From: a bacterium
GTDB lineage: Bacteria; Patescibacteriota; Minisyncoccia; Phycocordibacterales; UBA5272
Assembly (NCBI GenBank): GCA_023267555.1
Contig: JAHFMZ010000002.1
Location: 12,304-62,252, forward strand
Direction of reading: 5' to 3'
Length of the DNA stretch: 49,949 bases
Each line of letters opens with the position of its first letter. Position 1 is the first letter of the stretch. This document shows positions 5,281 through 49,144 of this stretch, one piece after another. Both the position numbers and the translations under genes were made by a program. Under the pieces are notes generated by a model, which worked only from the letters and a program-made list of their open reading frames with translations, was not told the DNA's origin and made no database searches.

Positions 5281-7173
5281 ATGAACAAAGACATAACAAC
5301 CACCGAAACAATAAAAGAAAATACGCTAGAGGTGGAACAAACGACCGCTCCTTCAGTCACACCATATCGTCGACCGCAAGAGAGACCAAAAACAGGTGGC
5401 AATCGTATGCGTAGTAATCGTCCACCACGTTCTATGGTTGGGCCAAAATTTGACACAACAGTTTCTTCTAAAGTAGAAACTGCACATATTCCCCCATTAA
5501 AAGATGGCGACATACGCATTATCCACTTTGGTGGTGTAGAAGAGATTGGACGCAATATGAGTATGGTCGAATACAAAGACACAATCTTGATAGTTGATTG
5601 TGGAGTTCAATTCACAGAAAAACATACCCCGGGTATTGATTTTATTCTTCCAAATACAAAATATTTAGAAGAACATAAACGTAAAATTAAAGGTGTACTT
5701 GTAACCCACGGACATCTCGATCACATTGGTGCTATTCCTTATATAATGCCTCGCATTGGTAACCCGCAAATATATGCACGCCTATTTACTTCACTAATGA
5801 TACGAAAGCGTCAGGAAGAATTTCCACATCTTGATGCACTGACTATAAATATTATTGAAAAGGGTGACGCTATTACATTGGGTGATTTGAAAGTTCGTTT
5901 CTTTGGTGTAACTCACGCGATACCAGATTCTATGGGCATCATAGTAGAAACCCCTTATGGTGACATTGTTCACTCTGGAGATCTTCGTCTAGAACATAAC
6001 AACGACATCCCAACTGATGATGAAGTAGAGCGCTATAAAGTTTTTGAGAATCGTAAGACATTATTATTGATGGCAGATTCTACAAACTGTGAGAATCCAG
6101 GATTTTCTATTTCTGATACCGTAGTTTATAAAAACATTGAAGGTATAATCACAGACACTCCCGGCCGTCTGATTATCAGTACTTTTGCTTCTCAGGTTGA
6201 ACGTATGCTCTTTATGTTGAATACCGCAGAAAAACACGGCAAAAAAGTTGTGATTGAAGGTCGCAGTATGAAAACAAATGTCGAGATTGCAAAACTTGCA
6301 AATATGCTCAAAATTCGTCCAGAGACACTTATATCATTAGAAGAGATGGTAAAGTACCCTGATAATAAAATTATTATTTTAGCTACCGGACAACAAGGTG
6401 AAGAATTTGCTGCTTTGGGACGTATCGCTTCTAAAGTACATAAATTTATTCGTCTCACACCCCGAGATACAATATTGATGTCCTCATCTGTGGTACCAGG
6501 AAATGAGCGAGCTGTACAAAATTTGAAAGATAAACTATCTCGTCAAGGAGCACATATTATTCACTACAAAACATCAGACGTGCATTCTTCGGGACACGCA
6601 AATGCTGATGAACTTTTGTGGATACATCGCAAAATACATCCAAAGTTTTTTATTCCCGTTCACGGATATCACTATATGCTTCGTGTGCACGCCGATCTTG
6701 AACGCAAATTAGGTATGCCAGAAGAAAATATAATTATTCCAGACAACGGAATGATTATAGAAATACAAGATGGTGGTAATAGAATTACAAAATTAAAAGA
6801 ATTAGCTCCAGGCGAAATGATTGTGGTTGATGGAACATCTGTCGGTAAAATCCAAGATGTTGTTATGCGCGATCGACAAACACTTGCAGAAGATGGAATA
6901 TTTATAGTAATTGGTGTTATAGATAGCCGCACTCATACTCTCAAAAAATCTCCAGATTTAATTTCTCGTGGATTTGTTTATTTAAAAGAATCTCAAGATC
7001 TTCTTTATCAGACTCGTCTCCTTACGAAAAAAGTTATAGAAAATTCTCTAACTCGTGGAGGTTATATGAATCTTGATCAAATGAAACAAGAAGTGGCTGA
7101 AACAACAACAAAATTCCTGCTTCAAAAGACGGCAAAAAATCCAGTTATAATACCAGTAATAATTTCAGTTTAA
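5281..7173 (+). CDS. rnj: Ribonuclease J
   Basis: 630 aa. Metallo-beta-lactamase motif HGHLDHIG, beta-CASP region and C-terminal domain. A basic, disordered N-terminal extension of about 70 aa. Confidence 0.9.
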   Translation: MNKDITTTETIKENTLEVEQTTAPSVTPYRRPQERPKTGGNRMRSNRPPRSMVGPKFDTTVSSKVETAHIPPLKDGDIRIIHFGGVEEIGRNMSMVEYKDTILIVDCGVQFTEKHTPGIDFILPNTKYLEEHKRKIKGVLVTHGHLDHIGAIPYIMPRIGNPQIYARLFTSLMIRKRQEEFPHLDALTINIIEKGDAITLGDLKVRFFGVTHAIPDSMGIIVETPYGDIVHSGDLRLEHNNDIPTDDEVERYKVFENRKTLLLMADSTNCENPGFSISDTVVYKNIEGIITDTPGRLIISTFASQVERMLFMLNTAEKHGKKVVIEGRSMKTNVEIAKLANMLKIRPETLISLEEMVKYPDNKIIILATGQQGEEFAALGRIASKVHKFIRLTPRDTILMSSSVVPGNERAVQNLKDKLSRQGAHIIHYKTSDVHSSGHANADELLWIHRKIHPKFFIPVHGYHYMLRVHADLERKLGMPEENIIIPDNGMIIEIQDGGNRITKLKELAPGEMIVVDGTSVGKIQDVVMRDRQTLAEDGIFIVIGVIDSRTHTLKKSPDLISRGFVYLKESQDLLYQTRLLTKKVIENSLTRGGYMNLDQMKQEVAETTTKFLLQKTAKNPVIIPVIISV

Positions 7174-7193
7174 ATAACTTGTAATTTTTGCGT

Positions 7194-7234
7194 GGAAATA
7201 AATAGTGGCGCCTACGGCGCCACTATTTATTTCC
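7194..7234. terminator. Perfect 19-bp hairpin after rnj
   Basis: GGAAATAAATAGTGGCGCC-TAC-GGCGCCACTATTTATTTCC. There is no clean U-tract. The 3' arm touches the downstream shared promoter motif. Confidence 0.6.
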
Positions 7235-7265
7235 ACTAGCAACTACCCACTCACCACTGTATACT
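7233..7265 (+). promoter_or_regulatory. Shared 33-nt promoter layout (copy upstream of the MFS transporter)
   Basis: CCACTAGCAACTACCCACTCACCACTGTATACT. TAGCAA sits 17 nt upstream of TATACT, and the ATG follows 9 nt later. Confidence 0.6.
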
Positions 7266-7274
7266 GTGTCATAT

Positions 7275-8444
7275 ATGCACGCTATTGTTCGTAATAAACT
7301 CCTCGTCGTCACATACATATTGACGATTTTATACGCCCTCCATTACGGTATACCTCTATATGCCACATCATCTTTCCTTCATCAATATTTCAATTCCTCC
7401 CTTGTTAGTGGTTTATATATGTTGGGAAGTTTGGGAGCATTAATTGCCTCAATATCTTTCGCTAAACGTATTAAACAATTCCATACTTACACTGTAACTT
7501 TTACTATGGTTGTGGGTGAAATCATAACTATACTTTTATTTGCTTTCACAAAAAATCTTTTCCTCCTTGCGCTATTTTTTATTATTCATTTTATTCTCAC
7601 AGCGCTCCTCTATGTTTGTTTAAACGTATTTATAGAAAGTTTTAGCAAACACGCAGAAACAGGAAGTATACGTGGGCTATTTTTAGCTCTTCTTAATATC
7701 GGTATTCTCATTTCCCCTCTTATCGGAGGAACTGTCCTGTCACACTCTTCATTTGAAGGATTATATGTTACTGCAGCGATTATGCTTGTGCCATTTTTGT
7801 TCTTCTTACATAAATATTTAGAACACGTAACAGAGCCAGCCTATCATAGTATCAATATGCTTCACGCTTTAAAAACAGCTTGGAGAAACAAAAATCTTCG
7901 CGCAGCTTTAATAGGAGAATTAACTGTGCAATGTTTTTATGCAGTGATGATTATTTATTCCCCAATTTATCTAACCACACTTGGTATACCCCTTTCTGTT
8001 TATCTTACTATAATTATTCCTTTTGCTTTGGTCCCATTGGTGATACTTCCGTATGAACTTGGTTTTTTAGCAGACTCTCGTTTCGGTGAAAAAGAATTAT
8101 TAATAATTGGATTTGCTATTTTGGCAATCACTACATTTTTATGCGTAGTTGTTACATCAACTTCTCCGCTTGTTTGGATTGCAATACTACTCACGTCTCG
8201 TATTGGAGCTTCTTGTGTCGAAACTATGGCCTTCACATATTACTTTAAAAAAGTTGGACCTGAAGATGCTTCCTTAACTGCTTTATTTACAAATACTGGG
8301 AATGTTGCCACGTTTGTAGTCGGAGCTGTTGGTTTTTCTATTGCTCCACTTCTAGTAGAACGACCTCAATTAATGTTTATTGTTCTTGGATGTGCAATAT
8401 TATTAAACCTATCTTATGTTCTTCCGATGAGAGATACTAGATAA
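7275..8444 (+). CDS. MFS transporter
   Basis: About 12 predicted hydrophobic helices. I start at ATG 7275 rather than the GTG at 7266 in the track, because TATACT (7260..7265) lies just upstream. Confidence 0.75.
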   Translation: MHAIVRNKLLVVTYILTILYALHYGIPLYATSSFLHQYFNSSLVSGLYMLGSLGALIASISFAKRIKQFHTYTVTFTMVVGEIITILLFAFTKNLFLLALFFIIHFILTALLYVCLNVFIESFSKHAETGSIRGLFLALLNIGILISPLIGGTVLSHSSFEGLYVTAAIMLVPFLFFLHKYLEHVTEPAYHSINMLHALKTAWRNKNLRAALIGELTVQCFYAVMIIYSPIYLTTLGIPLSVYLTIIIPFALVPLVILPYELGFLADSRFGEKELLIIGFAILAITTFLCVVVTSTSPLVWIAILLTSRIGASCVETMAFTYYFKKVGPEDASLTALFTNTGNVATFVVGAVGFSIAPLLVERPQLMFIVLGCAILLNLSYVLPMRDTR

Positions 8445-9557: not shown

Positions 9558-9613
9558 ATATGTGAATAACTAGGCTTGTATGACTTGAGTATATCACGCA
9601 AGGTTGTTACACT

Positions 9614-9840
9614 ATGGATAGACAGTTGTTTCATTATCAGCTTTTAGTACTAGAAAGAGAAGAGAAACTTCTTGAAGTCTATACAGATAAGAAAGGTATT
9701 ATAAAACCAATCTTGTCGATGCCGATAAAAAAGCAGATGCGGCTTCAAAACAACTGGAAGCAATCGTAAAAAATTTGCCAACAAAAACGGAAGCCAGAAG
9801 CAACCGTAACGCATCAAACAAGGACGTCACTTTTGAATAA
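9614..9840 (+). pseudogene. Possible frameshifted small ORF (49 codons, then about 40 codons in another frame), ending at a terminator
   Basis: The ATG at 9614 opens MDRQLFHYQLLVLEREEKLLEVYTDKKGIIKP.... The reading continues as ...VDADKKADAASKQLEAIVKNLPTKTEARSNRNASNKDVTFE* only after a 1-nt shift near 9700..9720. Confidence 0.25.
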
Positions 9841-9853
9841 AAAGTAACAAAAC

Positions 9854-9887
9854 AAAAATCGCCATACTTACCAGAGGGGCGATTTTT
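9854..9887. terminator. Bidirectional hairpin terminator
   Basis: AAAAATCGCC-N14-GGCGATTTTT, flanked by an A-run and a T-run. Confidence 0.6.
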
Positions 9888-9890
9888 GTT

Positions 9891-9995
9891 CGTCTAAGAC
9901 GTATCTGCTTTGTTGCAGGAAAATTTTTCTCGGTCAACGTACTATACGTACGTCTCTCTCAAAAAATTTTCCTGCGCCGCGCATCTGTCGTATTA
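9891..9995 (+). repeat. Palindromic intergenic element, copy A
   Basis: Core 9915..9975: GCAGGAAAATTTTT-ctcggtcaa-CGTAC-tatac-GTACG-tctctctc-AAAAAATTTTCCTGC. Shares boxes with copies at 26832..26960 and 48908..49019. Confidence 0.6.
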
Positions 9996-10082
9996 TAAAG
10001 GCAAAGAAACACTATTCGTAAAACTTTTCTTGACTCGCATCTGACACAATATCTGAACTAAAAAATTCACACCACCCAACTC

Positions 10083-11021
10083 TTATAAACTATTTTTAAT
10101 ATACGAATGAATATATTGTCCAACATCAACTCCTGTAGTTTGAAGTGACTGCATAAAGCGTCCATCAGAACGTAAAGATGGTGCTGTATCTATATTTACC
10201 ACAGCATAATTATCATTATAAGGAATTACATCAATACATACTGGACCAGATAAATCTAAAGCTTCATAAACTTTTTTAATAAAATCTTTCATTTGCTCCT
10301 TTTTATATTCTCCCGCGTGAGTATAAGCACGAATTAAAGATGAGTCATTTGGTATCTCTTTATTACCTGCAAATGTCTCTACCCAAAGTGGTGTATATAA
10401 ATGTTCACCACGAAAATTTGGAATCACAGCGACAGAAGAAGTAGGAACTTTACGGTAAGTAAGTATATGAGTATCTACTCCTTTACTATGATAATCCCCC
10501 ACAGCATTTTCTAAATCATTAAAAGATCGAATTAATTTTGATGGTGAATTATCTTTACGAATAAGTGGGCGCAACATAAGCGGTGTATGATATTTACTCC
10601 AAATAGATTGCAGTTGTTTTATTTGTAATGGGGCTTTTGCTCGAATGACAGCTGTCTCTGGAACTTTGAATCCTTGTTGACGTAAAATACGATACATATC
10701 TTCTCTATCCATACACACTCTGTCTGCGTGTGAAAAAAGTAATGGTATACCCATACGACGAGCCAAAGCTTGATACTCTTCCCCCATCATATGTGTAGTG
10801 TCTACCACTGTGTGAGCGATAGTGAAAATATAATGTGCATCAGTTGGTTGCCCGTGTAATGTCCAATTACCATCTGTATCAATAAGTACATCTAATGGCT
10901 TGTAATCAATTTTTGTGAGCGACTGTAATATTTCTGCTCCTTCTTTTAAAGATACTTTAAAATCCTTCTTTCCACCACGAAGCACAGCAATATCTGGAAG
11001 ACTATTAGATACTTTTAACAT
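10083..11021 (-). CDS. D-alanine--D-alanine ligase-like ATP-grasp protein (divergent)
   Basis: 312 aa. Ddl-like N-terminus (IAVLRGGKKDFKVSLKEG) and C-terminus (VCIDVIPYNDNYAVVNIDTAPSL). The central KP..GSS.G-type segment is replaced by RPLIRKDNSPSK. Confidence 0.55.
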   Translation of the reverse strand: MLKVSNSLPDIAVLRGGKKDFKVSLKEGAEILQSLTKIDYKPLDVLIDTDGNWTLHGQPTDAHYIFTIAHTVVDTTHMMGEEYQALARRMGIPLLFSHADRVCMDREDMYRILRQQGFKVPETAVIRAKAPLQIKQLQSIWSKYHTPLMLRPLIRKDNSPSKLIRSFNDLENAVGDYHSKGVDTHILTYRKVPTSSVAVIPNFRGEHLYTPLWVETFAGNKEIPNDSSLIRAYTHAGEYKKEQMKDFIKKVYEALDLSGPVCIDVIPYNDNYAVVNIDTAPSLRSDGRFMQSLQTTGVDVGQYIHSYIKNSL

Positions 11022-26764: not shown

Positions 26765-26785
26765 GTGCGAACTATTCTAACATAT

Positions 26786-26816
26786 AAAATGCGTGAGTCG
26801 AAGGCTCACGCATTTT
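26786..26816. terminator. Bidirectional hairpin terminator
   Basis: AAAATGCGTGAG-TCGAAGG-CTCACGCATTTT, between repeat copy B and tRNA-Trp. Confidence 0.65.
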
Positions 26817-26831
26817 GTATTAAGTCGTATT

Positions 26832-26960
26832 CTGAAAATCTAGAAAACTGTTTTAGCTACGCGAAGCCTAGAAATTTTTCAAAGAAGACGTACATATTAG
26901 TACGACGACTGGGAAAAATTTCGTAGCGACAAAGTAGATGAAATAGTTTTGTAGATTTTG
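26832..26960 (-). repeat. Palindromic intergenic element, copy B
   Basis: Minus-strand core: GAAATTTTTC-ccagtcgt-CGTAC-taatat-GTACG-tcttcttt-GAAAAATTTC. The outer arms AAAATCTA(C/G)AAAACT are also inverted. Starts directly after the rpmG stop. Confidence 0.65.
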
Positions 26961-27122
26961 CTATTTTTTGGTCTCCTTAAACATAACGTGTTTACGTAGT
27001 TTTTTAGAATACTTCTTGAGTTCAATTTTACGAGTAACAAGCTTCTTATTCTTGTAAGTAAAATAAGATTCGCCTGTTTCCTTGTTCTTTAATTGGATGA
27101 GATTATCTTGTGCGTGTGGCAT
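26961..27122 (-). CDS. rpmG: 50S ribosomal protein L33
   Basis: 53-aa ORF, absent from the track because it is under 60 aa: MPHAQDNLIQLKNKETGESYFTYKNKKLVTRKIELKKYSKKLRKHVMFKETKK. Typical L33 pattern (Y.T.KNK....K.EL.KY...LRKHV.FKE.K). Confidence 0.85.
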   Translation of the reverse strand: MPHAQDNLIQLKNKETGESYFTYKNKKLVTRKIELKKYSKKLRKHVMFKETKK

Positions 27123-27165
27123 AGTTTTCAAATATTACCCTATTTTTGGCTAAATTGCAAGGGTT

Positions 27166-35876: not shown

Positions 35877-38378
35877 CTAGAGTAAATTGAAACTGGCCAC
35901 AGAATCACCCTCACGCAATTTCATAACACGGACGCCTTGTGTATCGCGACCCAACGTAGGAATCGAAGTCAGCTCAGTACGTATCACCTGCGATTGCTTT
36001 GACACCGCGAGCAATTCTGCGATTTCACTTGTCACCACACGCGCAATCATCAACTTGCCGGTTTTTTCAGTCACCTTCACTGTCTTAATGCCACTTCCGC
36101 CACGCTTTTGTATTTTATATTCTGAAAGTTTTGTTTTCTTTCCATATCCATTAGCTGTCAAAATCAAAAGCTCTTGGCCTTTAATTCCTTCTGGCACAAC
36201 ATCGCCAGCAACAATCACGTCACCCTTGTCTAACTTCATACCAATCACTCCCGCAGCGGTGCGTCCCATTTCGCGCACATCATCGTGAGCAAAACGAATT
36301 GATTGTCCACGTTGTGTAGTCAAAATCACGCTATCTTTTCCTTTAACAAATAATGTCGCGAGTAATTCATCTCCATCTTCCAAACGAATCGCAATCAATC
36401 CGTTTCGACGAACATCTTTGAAACTATCTGCTGAAGATTTCTTCACTGTTCCATTTTTCGTAATCATCATCAATGAAATACCCTCTAACTTTCCGCCAGA
36501 GGCGGATCCGCCTCTGGCGGACATTCCCTTTGGCATCGGCAAAATACTTGTCACTTTTTCGCCATCAGAAAGTTGCAAGAAGTTCATAATACTCTTGCCA
36601 CGTGTCGCACGTTTGCCTTCTGGCAAATCATACATCTTAATTTGATAAGCCTTGCCTTTATCAGTAAAGAAAAGCATATCGTTGTGTGTCGAAGTGGTGA
36701 GTGACATAATCACAAAATCTTCTTCTTTGGTATTCATATCCACCACACCCACACCACCACGTTTCTGTGTACGGAATTCATCTGGATCAGTACGCTTCAC
36801 ATATCCGCCCGAAGTATAAACAAGTACTTCTTCACGATCTGCAATCAAATCTTCAGGATTAAATTCTTTCGCGCGATGCTTTACTATTTTTGTACGACGT
36901 TCATCACCATACTTTTCTTTAATCTCGGCAAGCTCGTCTTTAATGATACTCATCATTTTCTTTACCGACGCGAGAATACTTTTTAATTCTTCAATCAAGA
37001 TTTGTACAGCCTTCAAATCATCTTCAATTTTCTTTCTTTCAAGTCCAGCCAATCTTTGCAATTTCATTTCAAGAATTGCTGTTGCTTGTATATCTGAAAA
37101 CTTAAATTGCTTCACCAATTGCGCGTGCGCATCCGGCGTATCTTTTGATTTCTTAATTGTCTTGATGATTTCATCAATGTGATCCAATGCTTTTTTCAAA
37201 CCAAGCAAAATATGTTCTTTCTCAAGAGCACGTTTCAAATCAAATTCGGTGCGAAGACGAACAACTTCTTTGCGATGTCCAATAAATGATTCAAGTGCAC
37301 TTTTGAGTGCAAGAGTTTGAGGCACACCATCAACAAGAGCCACCACGTTGTAATGGAAAGTACTTTCAAGTTCTGTATGTTTGTATAAATAGTTGAGGAC
37401 TTTTTGGGGTTGTGTGCCGGATTTCAAATCTATCACCACACGAATGTCTTTGGTAGATTCATCACGAAGACCTTTAATACCTTCAACTTTTTTCTCACGC
37501 ACCAAATCTGCAATATTTTCTATTAAATTACTTTTTAAAACACGAAACGGAATAGAAGTGATAATAATTTGAAACATTCCGTTTTTTGTTTCAAAAATTT
37601 CTGCTTCACCACGCACCACCACACCACCGCGTCCTGTTGCATACGCAGCACGAATATCGGATTGACCAAAAGCAATTCCACCAAGTGGAAAATCTGGACC
37701 TTTCACGTATTCACACAAATCTTCAGTGGTGGCTTGAGGATTATCAATCAAATGTGTCGTCGCATCAATCACTTCGGTCAAATTGTGTGGTGGAATATTT
37801 GTCGCCATACCCACAGCGATGCCGAGTGTGCCATTCAAAAGAAGATTCGGCACAGCTGTTGGAAGTACGTGTGGTTCTTTTTTACTACCATCATAATTTG
37901 GCACCATTAATACTGTTTCTTTTTCAATGTCACGCATCATCTCCATCGATACTTTGGACATCTTGGCTTCGGTATAACGATACGCCGCTGCGCCATCACC
38001 ATCAATAGAACCAAAGTTACCTTGTCCCATCACAAGTGGATAACGATAAGAAAAATCTTGTGCAGATTTTACCATCGCATCATAAACCGAAGCATCTCCG
38101 TGTGGGTGATAATTACCGAGTACTTCTCCAACAATTGTTGCAGACTTGCGAAACTTTGCCCCTGGTGTGAGCCCCATATTATTCATCGCAAATAAAATAC
38201 GACGATGTACTGGTTTCAAGCCATCACGAGCGTCAGGCAAAGCACGAGAAGTGATAACGCTCATCGCATAATCGAGATATGCCGTACGCATTTCCTCTGC
38301 GATATTTACTGGACGGAGATTTATATGTGGAGCTTTTGGTTCATTCGGTTCTTCGGTAGAAATTGTCTTTTTTGCCAT
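35877..38378 (-). CDS. gyrA: DNA gyrase subunit A
   Basis: 833 aa. Motifs [11 protein letters not shown] and AAAYRYTE (catalytic Tyr region), plus a C-terminal beta-pinwheel repeat region. Confidence 0.95.
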
Positions 38379-41158: not shown

Positions 41159-41169
41159 AACAATTTAAA

Positions 41170-41208
41170 AAATAAATAGCGCAACCCTTCGGGTTGCGCT
41201 ATTTATTT
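41170..41208. terminator. Bidirectional hairpin terminator
   Basis: AAATAAATAGCGCAACCC-TTCG-GGTTGCGCTATTTATTT. Confidence 0.75.
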
Positions 41209-41253
41209 TTAATATTAAAACAAAACACCCTCCACGCAATTTGCGCAGAGGGT

Positions 41254-43699: not shown

Positions 43700-45013
43700 A
43701 TGAACGATGAAACAAAAAAAGAAATAGAAAAGAAAGAAGTCCTGATGTCACTCAAAGGAATGGATGATTTAATTGATGAAACATATTATGCACATCAAGG
43801 CCTATTTGAAAAAGCACAAGAAGTCGCTATGTATTATGGATTCAAACCAATAGAAACACCAATCTTGGAACACGAGGAAGTTTTCGTCTCGGCTATTGGT
43901 GAAGGAACAGACATTATAGATAAAGAAATGTATACATTACGCACAAAAGGTGGCGACAAACTCGCGATGCGTCCAGAATATACAGCTGGAGTGATGCGTG
44001 CATATTTGGAACACGGAATGCAAACACTTCCTCAACCAGTGATGTTGTATTCTTATGGTCAAACATTCAGACACGACAAACCTCAACGTGGTCGTTGGCG
44101 ACAATTCAGACAATTTAATCTTGAAATTTTGGGTACAAGCAAATCTATCGCTGACGCTCTCATCATCAGAACATTAATGACTATTCTTGAAGAATATGGT
44201 TTTAAAGATTTGATTATTGATATTAATTCAATGGGAGATAAAGAAACTCGCCCGGCTTTTGTTAAAGAATTAACTAATTATTATAAAAAACACTTAGAAA
44301 CACTTTGCAAAGACTGTCACGAACGTATAAAAAATAATCCACTTCGCCTTTTGGATTGCAAACAACCACAATGCCAGCCACTCAAAGAAAATGCTCCTTC
44401 ATCGCTTTCTTTCTTATCGAATGATGCTCGTCATCACTTTACCGAAGTACTTCAATATCTGGAAGAGATGGGAATACCTTATCGCGTTAATAATTCTCTT
44501 GTTCGTGGACAGAGTTATTACACACGCACAGTATTTGAAGTAATCAAAACAGACGTTGGTGAAGATGGAAAAGAAAAAGAAATCACAATTACCGGAGGAG
44601 GTCGCTATGACAATCTCGCAAAAATGATGGGTAGCAAAAAAGATGTACCTGCTGTCGGATCAGGACTCAGTATGGAAAGAATAATGATGTTCCCAGAATG
44701 TAAAAGTATTGCACCAAGAATAATGAAAGCACCAAAAGTATATTTCATTCAACTTGGATTCGAAGCTAAACTAAAAAGTTTATGTGTCATAGAAGTGCTT
44801 CGTAAAGCAAAAATTCCTGTACATCAATCATTGTCAAAAGATTCTCTTGGTCTTCAACTTTCAATGGCGGAGAAAATGAAAATCCCATTCTGTGTAATTT
44901 TCGGACAAAAGGAAGCCATAGATAACACAGTGATTGTTCGTAATATGGAAACCCGTTCCCAAGATACTGTGAAAATTGATGCCTTGTCGGATTATATAAA
45001 ACATTTGAAGTAA
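43700..45013 (+). CDS. hisS: Histidine--tRNA ligase
   Basis: 437 aa. Class II motifs (MRPEYTAGVMR, FRHDKPQRGRWRQFRQ, GGGRYDNL). Confidence 0.9.
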   Translation: MNDETKKEIEKKEVLMSLKGMDDLIDETYYAHQGLFEKAQEVAMYYGFKPIETPILEHEEVFVSAIGEGTDIIDKEMYTLRTKGGDKLAMRPEYTAGVMRAYLEHGMQTLPQPVMLYSYGQTFRHDKPQRGRWRQFRQFNLEILGTSKSIADALIIRTLMTILEEYGFKDLIIDINSMGDKETRPAFVKELTNYYKKHLETLCKDCHERIKNNPLRLLDCKQPQCQPLKENAPSSLSFLSNDARHHFTEVLQYLEEMGIPYRVNNSLVRGQSYYTRTVFEVIKTDVGEDGKEKEITITGGGRYDNLAKMMGSKKDVPAVGSGLSMERIMMFPECKSIAPRIMKAPKVYFIQLGFEAKLKSLCVIEVLRKAKIPVHQSLSKDSLGLQLSMAEKMKIPFCVIFGQKEAIDNTVIVRNMETRSQDTVKIDALSDYIKHLK

Positions 45014-45016
45014 TTA

Positions 45017-45046
45017 AATAAGCGCGACCGTAGGTCGCGCTTATTT
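45017..45046. terminator. Bidirectional hairpin terminator
   Basis: AAATAAGCGCGACC-GTA-GGTCGCGCTTATTT. Confidence 0.7.
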
Positions 45047-45116
45047 AATTTTACATTTACAAATCTAAAGAGTAGTATGTGCTAGAACCTTAACGTTGAA
45101 CTGAAAGGAAAGCCCC

Positions 45117-45857: not shown

Positions 45858-46256
45858 ATGGCATTTCGTGAGTTACACAATCTCACTATTGTAAGAAAAA
45901 ATGGCCCGATACCTGTCGTGCCATTTTTGCCTATTAAAGAAAAGATTTTGGGGAAAAATTACAATCTTTCAATTATTTTTTGTACCAAAGAAGAATCACG
46001 CGAAAGAAATAAAAAATATCGCAATAAAAATTATCCAACCAACATTCTTTCTTTCCCACTTGAAAAAAATGAAGGTGAAATTTACATATCATTAGGCACA
46101 GCAAGATATGATGCGAAAAATTTTGATATGTCTTATCAAAAATTTCTTCATCTTCTTGTTATTCACGGAGCTCTTCATTTGAAAGGACACGACCATAGTA
46201 GTACAATGGAGAAGTTAGAGGATTTACATTTAAAAAAATTTTATAGATTTGAGTGA
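45858..46256 (+). CDS. ybeY: rRNA maturation endoribonuclease YbeY
   Basis: 132 aa. Zinc motif HGALHLKGHDH. Confidence 0.85.
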   Translation: MAFRELHNLTIVRKNGPIPVVPFLPIKEKILGKNYNLSIIFCTKEESRERNKKYRNKNYPTNILSFPLEKNEGEIYISLGTARYDAKNFDMSYQKFLHLLVIHGALHLKGHDHSSTMEKLEDLHLKKFYRFE

Positions 46257-47658: not shown

Positions 47659-48903
47659 ATGGCAAAAGTAAATCCAGAAATTGAAAGCTTCGCTCGTATA
47701 AAAGTCATAGGTATTGGAGGCTCTGGGAAAGGCGCTCTAAATCATATGATTAACTCCAAATTACAAGGAGTTGAATTTATTGCGATGAATACAGATACAC
47801 AAGATCTTCATCATTCATTAGCTGAAAAGAAAATTCACATTGGTAAAAATCTTACCAAAGGTTTGGGTGCAGGTATGGATCCAGAAGTTGGAAAACGTAG
47901 TGCCGAAGAAACTCGCGAAGAAGTTCAGGATGTTGTCAAAGGTGGTGATATGGTCTTTATCGCTTGCGGAATGGGAGGCGGTACCGGCACTGGAGCTGCT
48001 CCTGTTGTCGCACAAATTACAAAAAACGAAGGCATACTAACAGTCGCTGTTGTGACAAAACCTTTCTTCTTTGAGGGTGCTTCACGTATGAAATTAGCAG
48101 AACGAGGTCTTGAAGAACTTGAAAAAGAAGTTGATGCCTTGATTGTCATTCCAAACGACCGACTATTGTCAGTTATTGATAAAAATACATCTGTAAAACA
48201 AGCTTTTGAAATGTGTGATGAGGTGCTCAAATCAGCTGTTGAAGGTATTGCAGATATTATCCGTACAGCTGGAACAATCAACCTCGACTTTGCTGACATA
48301 AAAAGAATATTGAAGGATTCAGGAACAGCACTTATGGGAGTCGGTCGTGGTATGGGTGAAAATCGCGCACGTGAAGCTGCGAGTGCGGCAGTCAACTCCC
48401 CTTTGCTCGATGTGTCTATACACGGAGCCAAAGGAGTTTTGTTTGCAATTTATGGAGCAGATGATCTAGGGATGCTTGAAGTGCAAGAAGCTGCGAAAAT
48501 TATTACCGAATCTGTTGATAAAGATGCAAAGATTATTTTTGGTATAGCTCAAGACAGTACACTTAAAAAAGATGAAGTAAAAGTGACTGTGATTGCTACT
48601 GGCTTTCCAAGCGGATTTTCATCACGTACTCACACATCTCAAGCGTCAGCATCAGAACTAAAACGTGATACCGAAGTAATTCCAGAACCTCGTCTTCCAA
48701 AAGCAGAAACTGTGGCAGAGGCAGTAAAGGAAGGAGATCGCCGACAAGATAATCGTATTGATAATGAAATGGGTACAGATAAAAAAGAAGAAGATACAAA
48801 GAAATCAAAAACTACTGATAAGAAAACAATTTTTAAATTTGATGATGATGAAGAGGATGATGAATGGGAAGCTTTGCCTCCATTTTTGCGCCGAAAAAAG
48901 TAA
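47659..48903 (+). CDS. ftsZ: Cell division protein FtsZ
   Basis: 414 aa. Tubulin signature GGGTGTGAAPV. Acidic and basic C-terminal tail ending in PPFLRRKK. Confidence 0.95.
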   Translation: MAKVNPEIESFARIKVIGIGGSGKGALNHMINSKLQGVEFIAMNTDTQDLHHSLAEKKIHIGKNLTKGLGAGMDPEVGKRSAEETREEVQDVVKGGDMVFIACGMGGGTGTGAAPVVAQITKNEGILTVAVVTKPFFFEGASRMKLAERGLEELEKEVDALIVIPNDRLLSVIDKNTSVKQAFEMCDEVLKSAVEGIADIIRTAGTINLDFADIKRILKDSGTALMGVGRGMGENRAREAASAAVNSPLLDVSIHGAKGVLFAIYGADDLGMLEVQEAAKIITESVDKDAKIIFGIAQDSTLKKDEVKVTVIATGFPSGFSSRTHTSQASASELKRDTEVIPEPRLPKAETVAEAVKEGDRRQDNRIDNEMGTDKKEEDTKKSKTTDKKTIFKFDDDEEDDEWEALPPFLRRKK

Positions 48904-48907
48904 TTTA

Positions 48908-49019
48908 GCTTATATCACATCATCTACGTTGTCGTTACGAGTTTTTTGTCGGTCGATGTACTAGCTGTACATCTTTCTCCAAAAAACTCTAGACTCCTAG
49001 TATCTGATGTAATCTAAGC
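48908..49019 (+). repeat. Palindromic intergenic element, copy C
   Basis: Core 48939..48989: GAGTTTTTTG-tcggtc-GATGTAC-tagct-GTACATC-tttctc-CAAAAAACTC. The outer arms GCTTATATCACATCATCTAC / GTATCTGATGTAATCTAAGC are inverted. Confidence 0.65.
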
Positions 49020-49065
49020 AAAATTCTGCCTCGCATCTAAAATAATTTTCTTAGTTTTAAAAAAT

Positions 49066-49091
49066 AAAACCGCTCATATGTGAGCGGTTTT
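49066..49091 (+). terminator. Intrinsic terminator after ftsZ and repeat copy C
   Basis: AAAACCGCTCA-TATG-TGAGCGGTTTT. Confidence 0.8.
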
Positions 49092-49144
49092 ATTATTTTA
49101 CTTTTTCCTTCTTAAAAACCCGCCCGTGATATACTGACCAAATT

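Follow-up and report, generated by a model that had tools for sequence, protein, structure and literature searches.

A large family of structured palindromic repeats in Patescibacteria, found against the stop codons of core genes

The window analysed here is the whole 49,949-nt stretch of contig JAHFMZ010000002.1 (assembly GCA_023267555.1, positions 12,304 to 62,252), from a patescibacterial genome of the Phycocordibacterales. Its metagenomic origin is shown by an identical 6.7-kb contig in ENA assembly ERZ27279942. An initial annotation had described three imperfect intergenic palindromes in it, copies A, B and C, with copy C (48908–49019) in the 3' region of ftsZ. Copy C belongs to a structured palindromic repeat family of Patescibacteria that is large and uncatalogued, and the conserved fold of the family lies, in about 85% of the copies, on the strand complementary to the mRNA of the upstream gene. 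We tentatively interpret the element as a structured palindromic repeat of the REP/ERIC/REPIN kind that is selected as a single strand, probably of DNA, and is spread or homogenised by exchange between copies; a probability of roughly 45% is assigned to this reading. The family is distinctive in four traits: it is spread across the Patescibacteria, its rod has four tandem G·A mismatches, its fold is selected on the strand opposite the mRNA, and it is in tight contact with the stop codons of core genes. Patescibacteria are ultra-small, mostly uncultured bacteria with genomes of about 1 Mb that make up a large share of bacterial diversity; to our knowledge, almost no non-coding elements have been described in their genomes. 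For genomes so reduced, a repeat set against the stops of core genes at the density found (about one copy per 10–25 kb of sequence examined) would be a substantial investment.

Extent of the family and its conserved fold

The initial annotation had read copies C(+), B(-) and A(+) as one design, and the parts that it listed were recovered. The 20-nt box CATCTACGTTGTCGTTACGA lies at 48921–48940 (+), with an 18-of-20 match in copy B at 26921–26940 (-) and no match in 100 shuffles, and the corresponding box of copy A is at 9901–9920 (+). The complementary stems GAGTTTTTTG.../...CAAAAAACTC, GAAATTTTTC.../...GAAAAATTTC and GCAGGAAAATTTTT/AAAAATTTTCCTGC are the inverted repeats I8, I6 and I20, respectively. 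GTAC-N5-6-GTAC tips were read directly in the three copies, and the listed loops and 3' boxes are all present where they had been placed. Folded as RNA, the long imperfect hairpins of C, B and A are beyond chance, with z values of -6.4, -5.7 and -3.6.

Further copies, for which the annotation had suggested a search, were found with a sequence pattern and a covariance model. The pattern common to A, B and C (ATCTNCNTTGTNG-N19-27-GTACT-N3-6-GTACNTCT, 22 specified bases) matched 90 stretches among 185,579 species-representative genomes, four of which are chance matches. Nearly all are in metagenome-assembled genomes (MAGs) labelled as Paceibacterota, Nomurabacteria, Parcubacteria, Kaiser-, Yonath- and Azambacteria, 'Saccharibacteria' or Patescibacteria group, and a single genome often yields several. 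The covariance model was built from 87 copies and run on the fetched loci (8 kb each) and the window with a cut-off of E < 1e-3; it gave 114 copies across the 90 public loci, 27 of them not caught by the pattern. Positions fixed by the pattern are invariant by construction, and the 27 copies found by the model alone relax them only in part. In the window, the three copies of the annotation were confirmed and a fourth, copy D, was added by the model, so that the 50 kb hold four. The G+C content of the family tracks that of the host genome, ranging from about 30% to about 60%. Real copies outside Patescibacteria were found in two Sporomusa genomes, one Geobacteraceae MAG, on a contig that also carries a cobalamin riboswitch, and one mouse-gut Firmicutes MAG. 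On the chromosome of the cultured Negativicute Sporomusa silvacetica (locus L005), two inverted copies (6024–6129 and 7295–7400) flank the gene for the N-terminal subunit of transketolase; the gene for the C-terminal subunit starts 33 nt after one of them, which is on the mRNA strand.

The motif had not been recognised in the initial annotation, and known families do not account for it. Rfam 15 reported only a tRNA on the whole window and nothing on the elements in sixteen loci with about 25 copies; an Rfam E-value search of 48880–49110 gave only terminator-driven noise, the best match on the element being RAGATH-33 with 13.7 bits against a threshold of 120. There were no matches in 2.9 million viral contigs and none by blastn to phage and plasmid records, and a phage or plasmid origin was therefore rejected. 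A literature search by topic and by sequence string, within the library covered, did not find the element.

The element is a hairpin of about 110–150 nt that, on its folding strand, forms an almost continuous rod consisting of an outer stem of 20–28 bp, a 3-bp stem and two variable stems, with a GUAC/GUAC tip at its apex. Its continuity is broken by four conserved tandem G·A mismatches and by one asymmetric GA/AAA loop, the tandem purine mismatches being G14A15/G94A95, G22(C/A)23/(A/G)85A86, G39A40/G68A69 and (G/A)43A44/G64A65. The consensus boxes are AGAUNCGAGGCG and CAACAAAGN'AGAUG. Tip pairs are near-invariant in the 114 copies, in part because the search pattern imposes them. The inner part of the outer stem is semi-conserved (AAAUUGYUUY/GRRRURAUUU), and its outermost 8–12 bp, which sometimes reach into the last codons of the gene, are locus-specific except in one group of seven copies with shared arms. 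The outer stem of AT-rich genomes bears an A-tract on its 5' side and a U-tract on its 3' side; in G+C-rich genomes these tracts are absent. Two copies (L088:7426–7583 and L061:5209–5372) have insertions of about 50 nt near the hairpin apex, showing that the tip tolerates extra sequence.

The consensus structure was taken from folds of the individual sequences and tested by pair counting. It replaced an RNAalifold run on a plain MAFFT alignment, which recovered only the apical stem, as indels put the variable stems out of register. On the strand read in the initial annotation (hereafter the annotated strand), 76% of the cells of the consensus structure are paired, compared with 57% after shuffling, and the covariation score is 0.425 against 0.141 (slid controls, 0.10–0.20). 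On the folding strand, 81% of the cells are paired against 66% in shuffles, with a score of 0.395 against 0.163 (slid controls, 0.11–0.15). Neither score was reached in any of 500 shuffles; the covariation that had been suspected from three copies is thus real in the family. The middle pair of the 3-bp stem next to the boxes, for example, is G-C in 36, A-U in 35, U-A in 7 and C-G in 4 copies. Since the copies are not independent, the variable stems were clustered at 80% identity into 58 variants, the largest of which takes in 32 copies, spread over 28 loci. When each variant is represented once (n = 58), the outer stem is 91.5% paired, compared with 59.5% in shuffled sequences, and the inner stems are 70% paired, compared with 44%; therefore, the conserved fold is real. 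Among copies at orthologous positions, 83 of 113 double changes keep the pairing.

Folding strand and position at gene ends

The initial annotation had left open a structured RNA, a DNA cruciform or a protein-binding site. A structured fold is confirmed, but it is conserved on the reverse complement of the annotated strand, which folds better in 85 of 87 copies (mean -52.1 versus -39.7 kcal/mol). For copy C, the RNA fold has -45.8 kcal/mol on the minus strand and -37.0 on the plus strand (z = -8.1 versus -6.4), and the corresponding values with DNA energy parameters are -25.3 and -20.0. The loops of the annotated strand are the complements of tandem G·A pairs, and its stems show A·C where the other strand has G·U: isolated mismatches between Watson-Crick pairs on the annotated strand comprise 126 A·C versus 34 G·T, and 89 C·T or T·C versus 8 G·A or A·G. 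On the complement, the outer stem is 86.5% paired, and wobble polymorphism is seen there only (U·G 33/C-G 32, G·U 50/G-C 35, G·U 41). One-sided changes between orthologous copies keep the pairing in 39 of 108 cases on the complement and in 10 of 108 on the annotated strand. The asymmetry persists across the family with DNA energy parameters and also in copies of the minority gene orientation. Known strand biases of mutation (C-to-T, on the non-transcribed and leading strands) would give the opposite pattern and, on these grounds, should not account for the asymmetry. As the fold is selected on the opposite strand, a structured RNA in the 3' untranslated region (UTR) of ftsZ or rpmG becomes the least favoured of the three forms first proposed.

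Scoring of the copies against stop codons, another suggestion of the annotation, revealed a tight relation. The 3' neighbour of the folding strand is a convergent open reading frame (ORF) in 97 of the 114 copies, and in about 85 of these the stop codon of that gene is within about -9 to +10 nt of the point where the model ends. Viewed from the gene side, 3–22 nt separate the end of the stop codon (TAA 49, TAG 23, TGA 2) from the ATCT box, and the codon lies within the outer stem. The gene on the other side of the element is 13 to more than 400 nt away, and some copies are only 13–40 nt from the next gene of an operon. Genes flanking the element are core genes, mostly abundant, and include ssb (seven), secY, fusA, rpoC, ychF, rpsR, ftsZ and rpmG, together with gyrA, gyrB, L11, L31, atpG, ftsE/X and rny. 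For the copies of Sporomusa, the gut Firmicutes MAG and Geobacteraceae that lie between co-directional genes, the folding strand is that of the mRNA.

In 28 of 113 copies, including B and C, a canonical and mostly symmetric terminator follows 12–83 nt beyond the element in the direction of the gene. Copies C and B had been correctly placed between a stop codon and an intrinsic terminator (ftsZ and 49063–49094; the L33 gene and 26782–26820). Since each of these copies precedes a separate canonical terminator, the element is not itself an intrinsic (Rho-independent) terminator. No positional promoter signal was found within or beside the element across the copies, and no promoter-like site next to copy C. 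Small ORFs and read-through extensions were considered and rejected, based on the stop-to-box distances in all three frames and the absence of a conserved start codon.

Mosaic copies and interpretation of the element

Reassortment between loci and species affects stems, boxes and outer arms. The fusA copies of two species (L028 and L090) have practically identical coding flanks, outer stems and boxes and unrelated inner stems, and inner stems that are 93–100% identical occur at non-orthologous loci in different species. Inner-stem identity is only weakly correlated with outer-stem identity (r = 0.26). Seven copies at unrelated genes have common extended outer arms (AAAAGTCAGAAAT/ATTTATGACTTTT), which encode K-K-S/A-stop. 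As the stems fall into shared variants that reassort across loci and species, a mobile or recombining history is likely. The initial annotation had argued against recent copies of a transposable element of the miniature inverted-repeat type (MITE); the copies are indeed not recent and identical, but such a history is nevertheless likely. Copies within one genome mostly have different stems, and therefore no recent burst has occurred.

Presence of the element also varies among orthologues. The gyrA gene of the window (35877–38378, minus strand) has no element after its stop codon, whereas an orthologue with 87% amino-acid identity has one (L008:184–313, MAG CAYWEW01). The insertion boundaries could not be defined from this pair because the downstream regions are not homologous. 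Similar differences are found among orthologues of rpsR, ssb and fusA, those that lack the element having plain terminators. Tandem pairs of complete copies on the same strand, each with its own outer stem and 14–25 nt apart, are present at L016:884–1114, L024:2728–2966 and L013:4835–5067.

Parallels for the recognition of folded single-stranded DNA by a strand- and structure-specific protein are REPIN-RAYT (PMC3116915, PMC3479197), attC-IntI and the ends of IS200/IS605 elements. In the reading that we favour, selection would similarly act on the folded single strand of the element, which would be recognised by a structure- and strand-specific protein. This strand would most likely be DNA, in the form of an extruded hairpin, a cruciform arm or a single-stranded intermediate; a DNA form is preferred because an antisense RNA would lack a conserved promoter and because the strand signals oppose a sense RNA. 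Exchange from copy to copy, by gene conversion or re-insertion, would renew the copies and reassort outer arms, boxes, variable stems and tips between loci, and is proposed as the cause of the mosaicism. A precedent is given by REPINs, repeats that fold into hairpins, show compensatory changes and are mobilised in the form of single-stranded DNA (PMC3116915). The orientation bias could reflect survival: the dominant orientation may prevent the more stable hairpin from entering the mRNA and, where a gene is co-directional with replication, from lying on the lagging-strand template. A position directly after a stop codon may be the one place in compact genomes that tolerates about 130 nt. Copy C would then be a passenger in the ftsZ transcript, where only the weaker complementary hairpin would form ahead of the true terminator.

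Several points weigh against this reading. No transposase, recombinase or other partner protein was identified, no systematic search for one having been made. With the majority orientation, the folding strand would rarely exist as a single strand at its locus, and any selection would then have to be assumed to act during exchange and not in situ. Many copies occur at the same housekeeping genes in several species, with differing stems in each genome, and such recurrence is as compatible with a host function as with a selfish repeat. Tandem G·A pairs and A-rich bulges are no less characteristic of RNA than of DNA. The measures of replication and gene orientation agree in 103 of the 114 copies, so that the attempt to separate the replication strand from the gene strand ended with the two confounded. 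No target-site duplication is evident and no empty site that could be aligned was found; the flanks of orthologue pairs with and without the element do not align. Hairpins with an ATCT loop, the empty sites predicted if only the core inserted, are not enriched. Core-only insertion into hairpin loops with duplication of ATCT was accordingly rejected; the ATCT...ATCT direct repeat is internal to the fold.

A more ambitious proposal, which we consider rather unlikely, is that the element, instead of being a selfish repeat, is a host-maintained signal at core-gene ends throughout the phylum, formed by template-strand single-stranded DNA or by a short antisense RNA, and that a putative dedicated protein reads the G·A rod. 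If true, it would represent a new, Patescibacteria-specific class of gene-end cis-element, with possible roles in the control of antisense transcription, replication-transcription traffic or recombination.

Two readings place the function in RNA. A structured non-coding RNA (ncRNA) family could be made from the folding strand, cis-antisense to the 3' ends of housekeeping genes; it might arise by divergent transcription from the promoter of the next gene, with the hairpin forming the RNA body and perhaps also acting as terminator. The 3' end, placed at the stop codon, could shield the coding region from antisense transcription, or the G·A-rich loops could bind a protein. The purine-rich loops, the four tandem G·A pairs, the GA/AAA bulge and the neutral G·U/G-C polymorphism form a signature of functional RNA, the fold points its 3' end at a convergent gene in 97 of 114 copies, and the A- and U-tracts of the outer stem in AT-rich genomes point in the same direction. 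The folding strand coincides with the mRNA strand at the Sporomusa, gut Firmicutes and Geobacteraceae copies and at copies A and D, and thus the RNA certainly exists there. We nevertheless judge an antisense ncRNA to be unlikely. No positionally conserved promoter lies 5' of the fold, the symmetric terminators cut off 28 of 113 copies, B and C included, from the downstream promoter region and leave 12–83 nt, and at B and C transcription would need to start within the 25–45 nt between symmetric terminator and hairpin. Other copies are 13–40 nt from the next gene of an operon, the G+C content tracks that of the genome and is not raised as it is in tRNA or rRNA, and mosaic exchange between loci is unusual for RNA genes. 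A hairpin of the sense strand, in a 3' UTR or between cistrons and transcribed with the upstream gene as in ERIC or REP elements, is likewise unlikely. The terminating ribosome would melt its foot, and the hairpin would set the stability or processing of the upstream cistron or couple its translation to that of the next. The element is certainly in the sense transcript, either before the terminator or between cistrons (ssb-rpsR, ftsE-ftsX), the stop-to-box distance is tight (3–22 nt), the upstream genes are abundant housekeeping genes, and the sense hairpin is still stable (-37 kcal/mol and z = -6.4 for copy C). ERIC elements, moreover, affect the upstream mRNA in an orientation-dependent and ribosome-triggered manner, its decay being set off when a ribosome arrives at the element (PMC2229807). 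All signals that discriminate between the strands nonetheless point to the opposite one. The conserved motifs of the sense strand would be tandem U·C and fixed A·C mismatches, and selection for a strong hairpin in the mRNA would be expected to make the stronger orientation prevail, whereas only a minority of copies have it.

The two remaining explanations fit less well. The element could act at the DNA level as host punctuation, in the form of a cruciform, or of a palindrome bound by protein, where heavily transcribed units end. There it would serve as a polar roadblock, terminator, topological barrier or gyrase site, as has been proposed for BIME/REP clusters. Many species have it at the 3' ends of highly expressed genes and operons, it is the only intergenic structure in some convergent gene pairs, and it is a long palindrome whose central loop is short. 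Covarying stems would not be required of a double-stranded binding site, though, extrusion of a mismatched palindrome would be costly, and at the same genes close relatives have plain terminators in place of the element, which together make this explanation improbable. Least credible is that the copies are inert remains of an old MITE burst under no present selection, with covariation derived from a few founder variants. One stem variant does account for 32 of the 114 copies, and stumps and divergent copies exist; against this, pairing is kept by all 58 stem variants, orthologous copies differ mostly by pair-preserving changes (83 of 113 double changes), and the loops are conserved across elements of about 30% to about 60% G+C.

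Comparison with known systems places the family nearest to palindromic repeats, with clear differences. ERIC/IRU and the related Correia/NEMIS, RUP and YPAL palindromes are 100–200 bp in length and form a stem-loop with mismatches over their whole length (PMC2229807). They are intergenic and co-transcribed, often touch or are fused to ORF ends, depend on orientation in their effects, and occur in many species of a large clade with no obvious linked transposase (PMC2229807). Like ERIC elements and MITEs, the present family is non-coding, falls in the 100–200 bp range and folds end to end. It has no sequence similarity to ERIC-type palindromes, its stems vary widely (58 variants) around conserved non-canonical motifs, its fold is selected opposite the mRNA in about 85% of copies, and its outer arms are largely locus-specific, its terminal inverted repeats being conserved only in part, with no TA duplication seen. 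REP/REPIN-RAYT systems are extragenic hairpin repeats with compensatory changes, long vertical inheritance and tandem or clustered arrangements, and are presumed to be processed in single-stranded DNA form by a strand-specific enzyme that is present in a single copy (PMC3116915, PMC3479197). A REPIN consists of two inverted REPs, whereas the 5' and 3' boxes of the family are not reverse complements. The REP unit has 20–40 nt, or is an inverted pair with a spacer, compared with a single hairpin unit of 110–150 nt here. REPIN populations are dominated by a master sequence, whereas most copies of the family in a genome differ, and the tight link to stop codons is a trait of the family and not of REPINs.

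Integron attC sites are imperfect palindromes of 60–140 nt directly 3' of an ORF that conserve little sequence but a common fold. The family resembles them as an ORF-proximal imperfect palindrome of which the bottom strand, complementary to the mRNA, folds, and in a variable tip that tolerates insertions. It is not attC, because complementary AAC/GTT core sites, cassettes and an integrase are lacking: the core sites RYYYAAC/GTTRRRY are absent, an AAC triplet being present without its GTT partner, the conserved boxes face each other without being complementary, and the flanking genes are syntenic housekeeping genes, with no arrays and no integrase nearby. Resemblances to attC, K-turns, hairpin ribozymes and the pMV158 nick site were considered and were dropped once the consensus had been read. 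The family also resembles ncRNA motifs from comparative genomics in its covarying conserved structure, its conserved purine-rich internal loops and its detection from intergenic sequence alone. It differs from them in having tens of copies per genome, mostly antisense to the flanking gene, and no visible promoter. The authors of such motifs state that RNA and single-stranded DNA motifs cannot be separated by sequence alone (PMC5737381). The strand asymmetry of the present family should provide a clean test case for this distinction, and mosaic exchange between copies a model for the persistence of structured repeats in reduced genomes. The covariance model built here can serve immediately as an annotation marker for Patescibacteria genomes. 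A partner protein, if one exists, would probably be a new structure-specific nucleic-acid-binding or recombination enzyme.

Copies in the window and their surroundings

The features of copy C and the positions of the other copies are as follows; the strand given for the parts of a copy is the folding strand.

48902..49025, minus strand: copy C, complete hairpin, from RNA and DNA folds and a covariance model match at 48910–49017 (-) of 91 bits
48901..48903, plus strand: ftsZ stop codon TAA, at the foot of the outer stem of copy C
48921..48934, minus strand: 3' box CGACAACGUAGAUG, annotated on the other strand as the 5' box CATCTACGTTGTCG; covariance model and consensus
48935..48948, minus strand: one arm of the variable stems P3/P4, pairing with 48980–48993; inverted repeat I8 and model alignment
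48955..48973, minus strand: apical hairpin P5, GATGTAC-TAGCT-GTACATC; sequence reading and fold
48980..48993, minus strand: other arm of the variable stems, P4/P3; inverted repeat I8 and model alignment
48994..49005, minus strand: 5' box AGAUACUAGGAG, annotated on the other strand as the 3' box CTCCTAGTATCT; covariance model and consensus
49028..49038, plus strand: lone extra family box GCCTCGCATCT just outside copy C; read from the sequence, with no model match
49063..49094, plus strand: terminator of the ftsZ transcript, canonical A-tract/hairpin/T-tract; inverted repeat I10
26835..26959, plus strand: copy B, complete hairpin, antisense to rpmG; covariance model, 94 bits
9892..9998, minus strand: copy A; covariance model, 85 bits
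46243..46350, plus strand: copy D, divergent and newly found, between ybeY and ftsA; covariance model, 47 bits, E = 9e-9

The complete hairpin of copy C starts at 48902 and therefore includes the stop codon at its foot, the outer stem taking in the last two bases of the ftsZ stop. Its 3' box CGACAACGUAGAUG carries an AGAU half of a tandem G·A pair, together with the P2 stem and with that side of the GA/AAA loop which is rich in A. The extra box GCCTCGCATCT is probably the stump of a decayed tandem copy. A second lone, near-perfect box (GACTCGCATCTG, about 10040–10055) adjoins copy A and is likewise probably a stump of this kind. The terminator at 49063–49094 is, as far as its palindrome indicates, symmetric enough that it would act in both directions.

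The orientation that the initial annotation had taken as common to C(+), B(-) and A(+) is not kept relative to the flanking genes, where A and D are opposite to B and C. Of the four, B (at rpmG) and C (at ftsZ) lie antisense to the gene, and A and D share the strand of the genes beside them. The rpmG (L33) gene occupies 26961–27131 on the minus strand, with its stop codon at 26961–26963, and is followed by copy B, the terminator at 26782–26820 and a tRNA gene. The folding strand of copy A is that of a Ddl-like gene (10083–11021), and the copy lies 84 nt past the stop of that gene and directly before the terminator at 9858–9890. For copy D, the folding strand is the coding strand of both ybeY and ftsA; its 5' arm overlaps the ybeY stop codon (46254–46256), and it ends 22 nt before the ftsA start.

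The stretch from 9560 to 9890 is without an intact ORF, although one frame gives a plausible C-terminal peptide (...KKADAASKQLEAIVKNLPTKTEARSNRNASNKDVTFE*) past several stops, and it may be a pseudogene or a small gene. The symmetric terminator at 9858–9890 separates it from copy A. Near-perfect A-tract/hairpin/T-tract palindromes, which are canonical terminators of bidirectional appearance, are found at 7192–7236, 41162–41216, 45012–45050, 26782–26820 and 49059–49098. Plus-strand genes give way to minus-strand genes near 9.6 kb (convergent), the reverse change, which is divergent, lies near 40 kb, and the GC skew of the plus strand is negative throughout 5–45 kb of the window.

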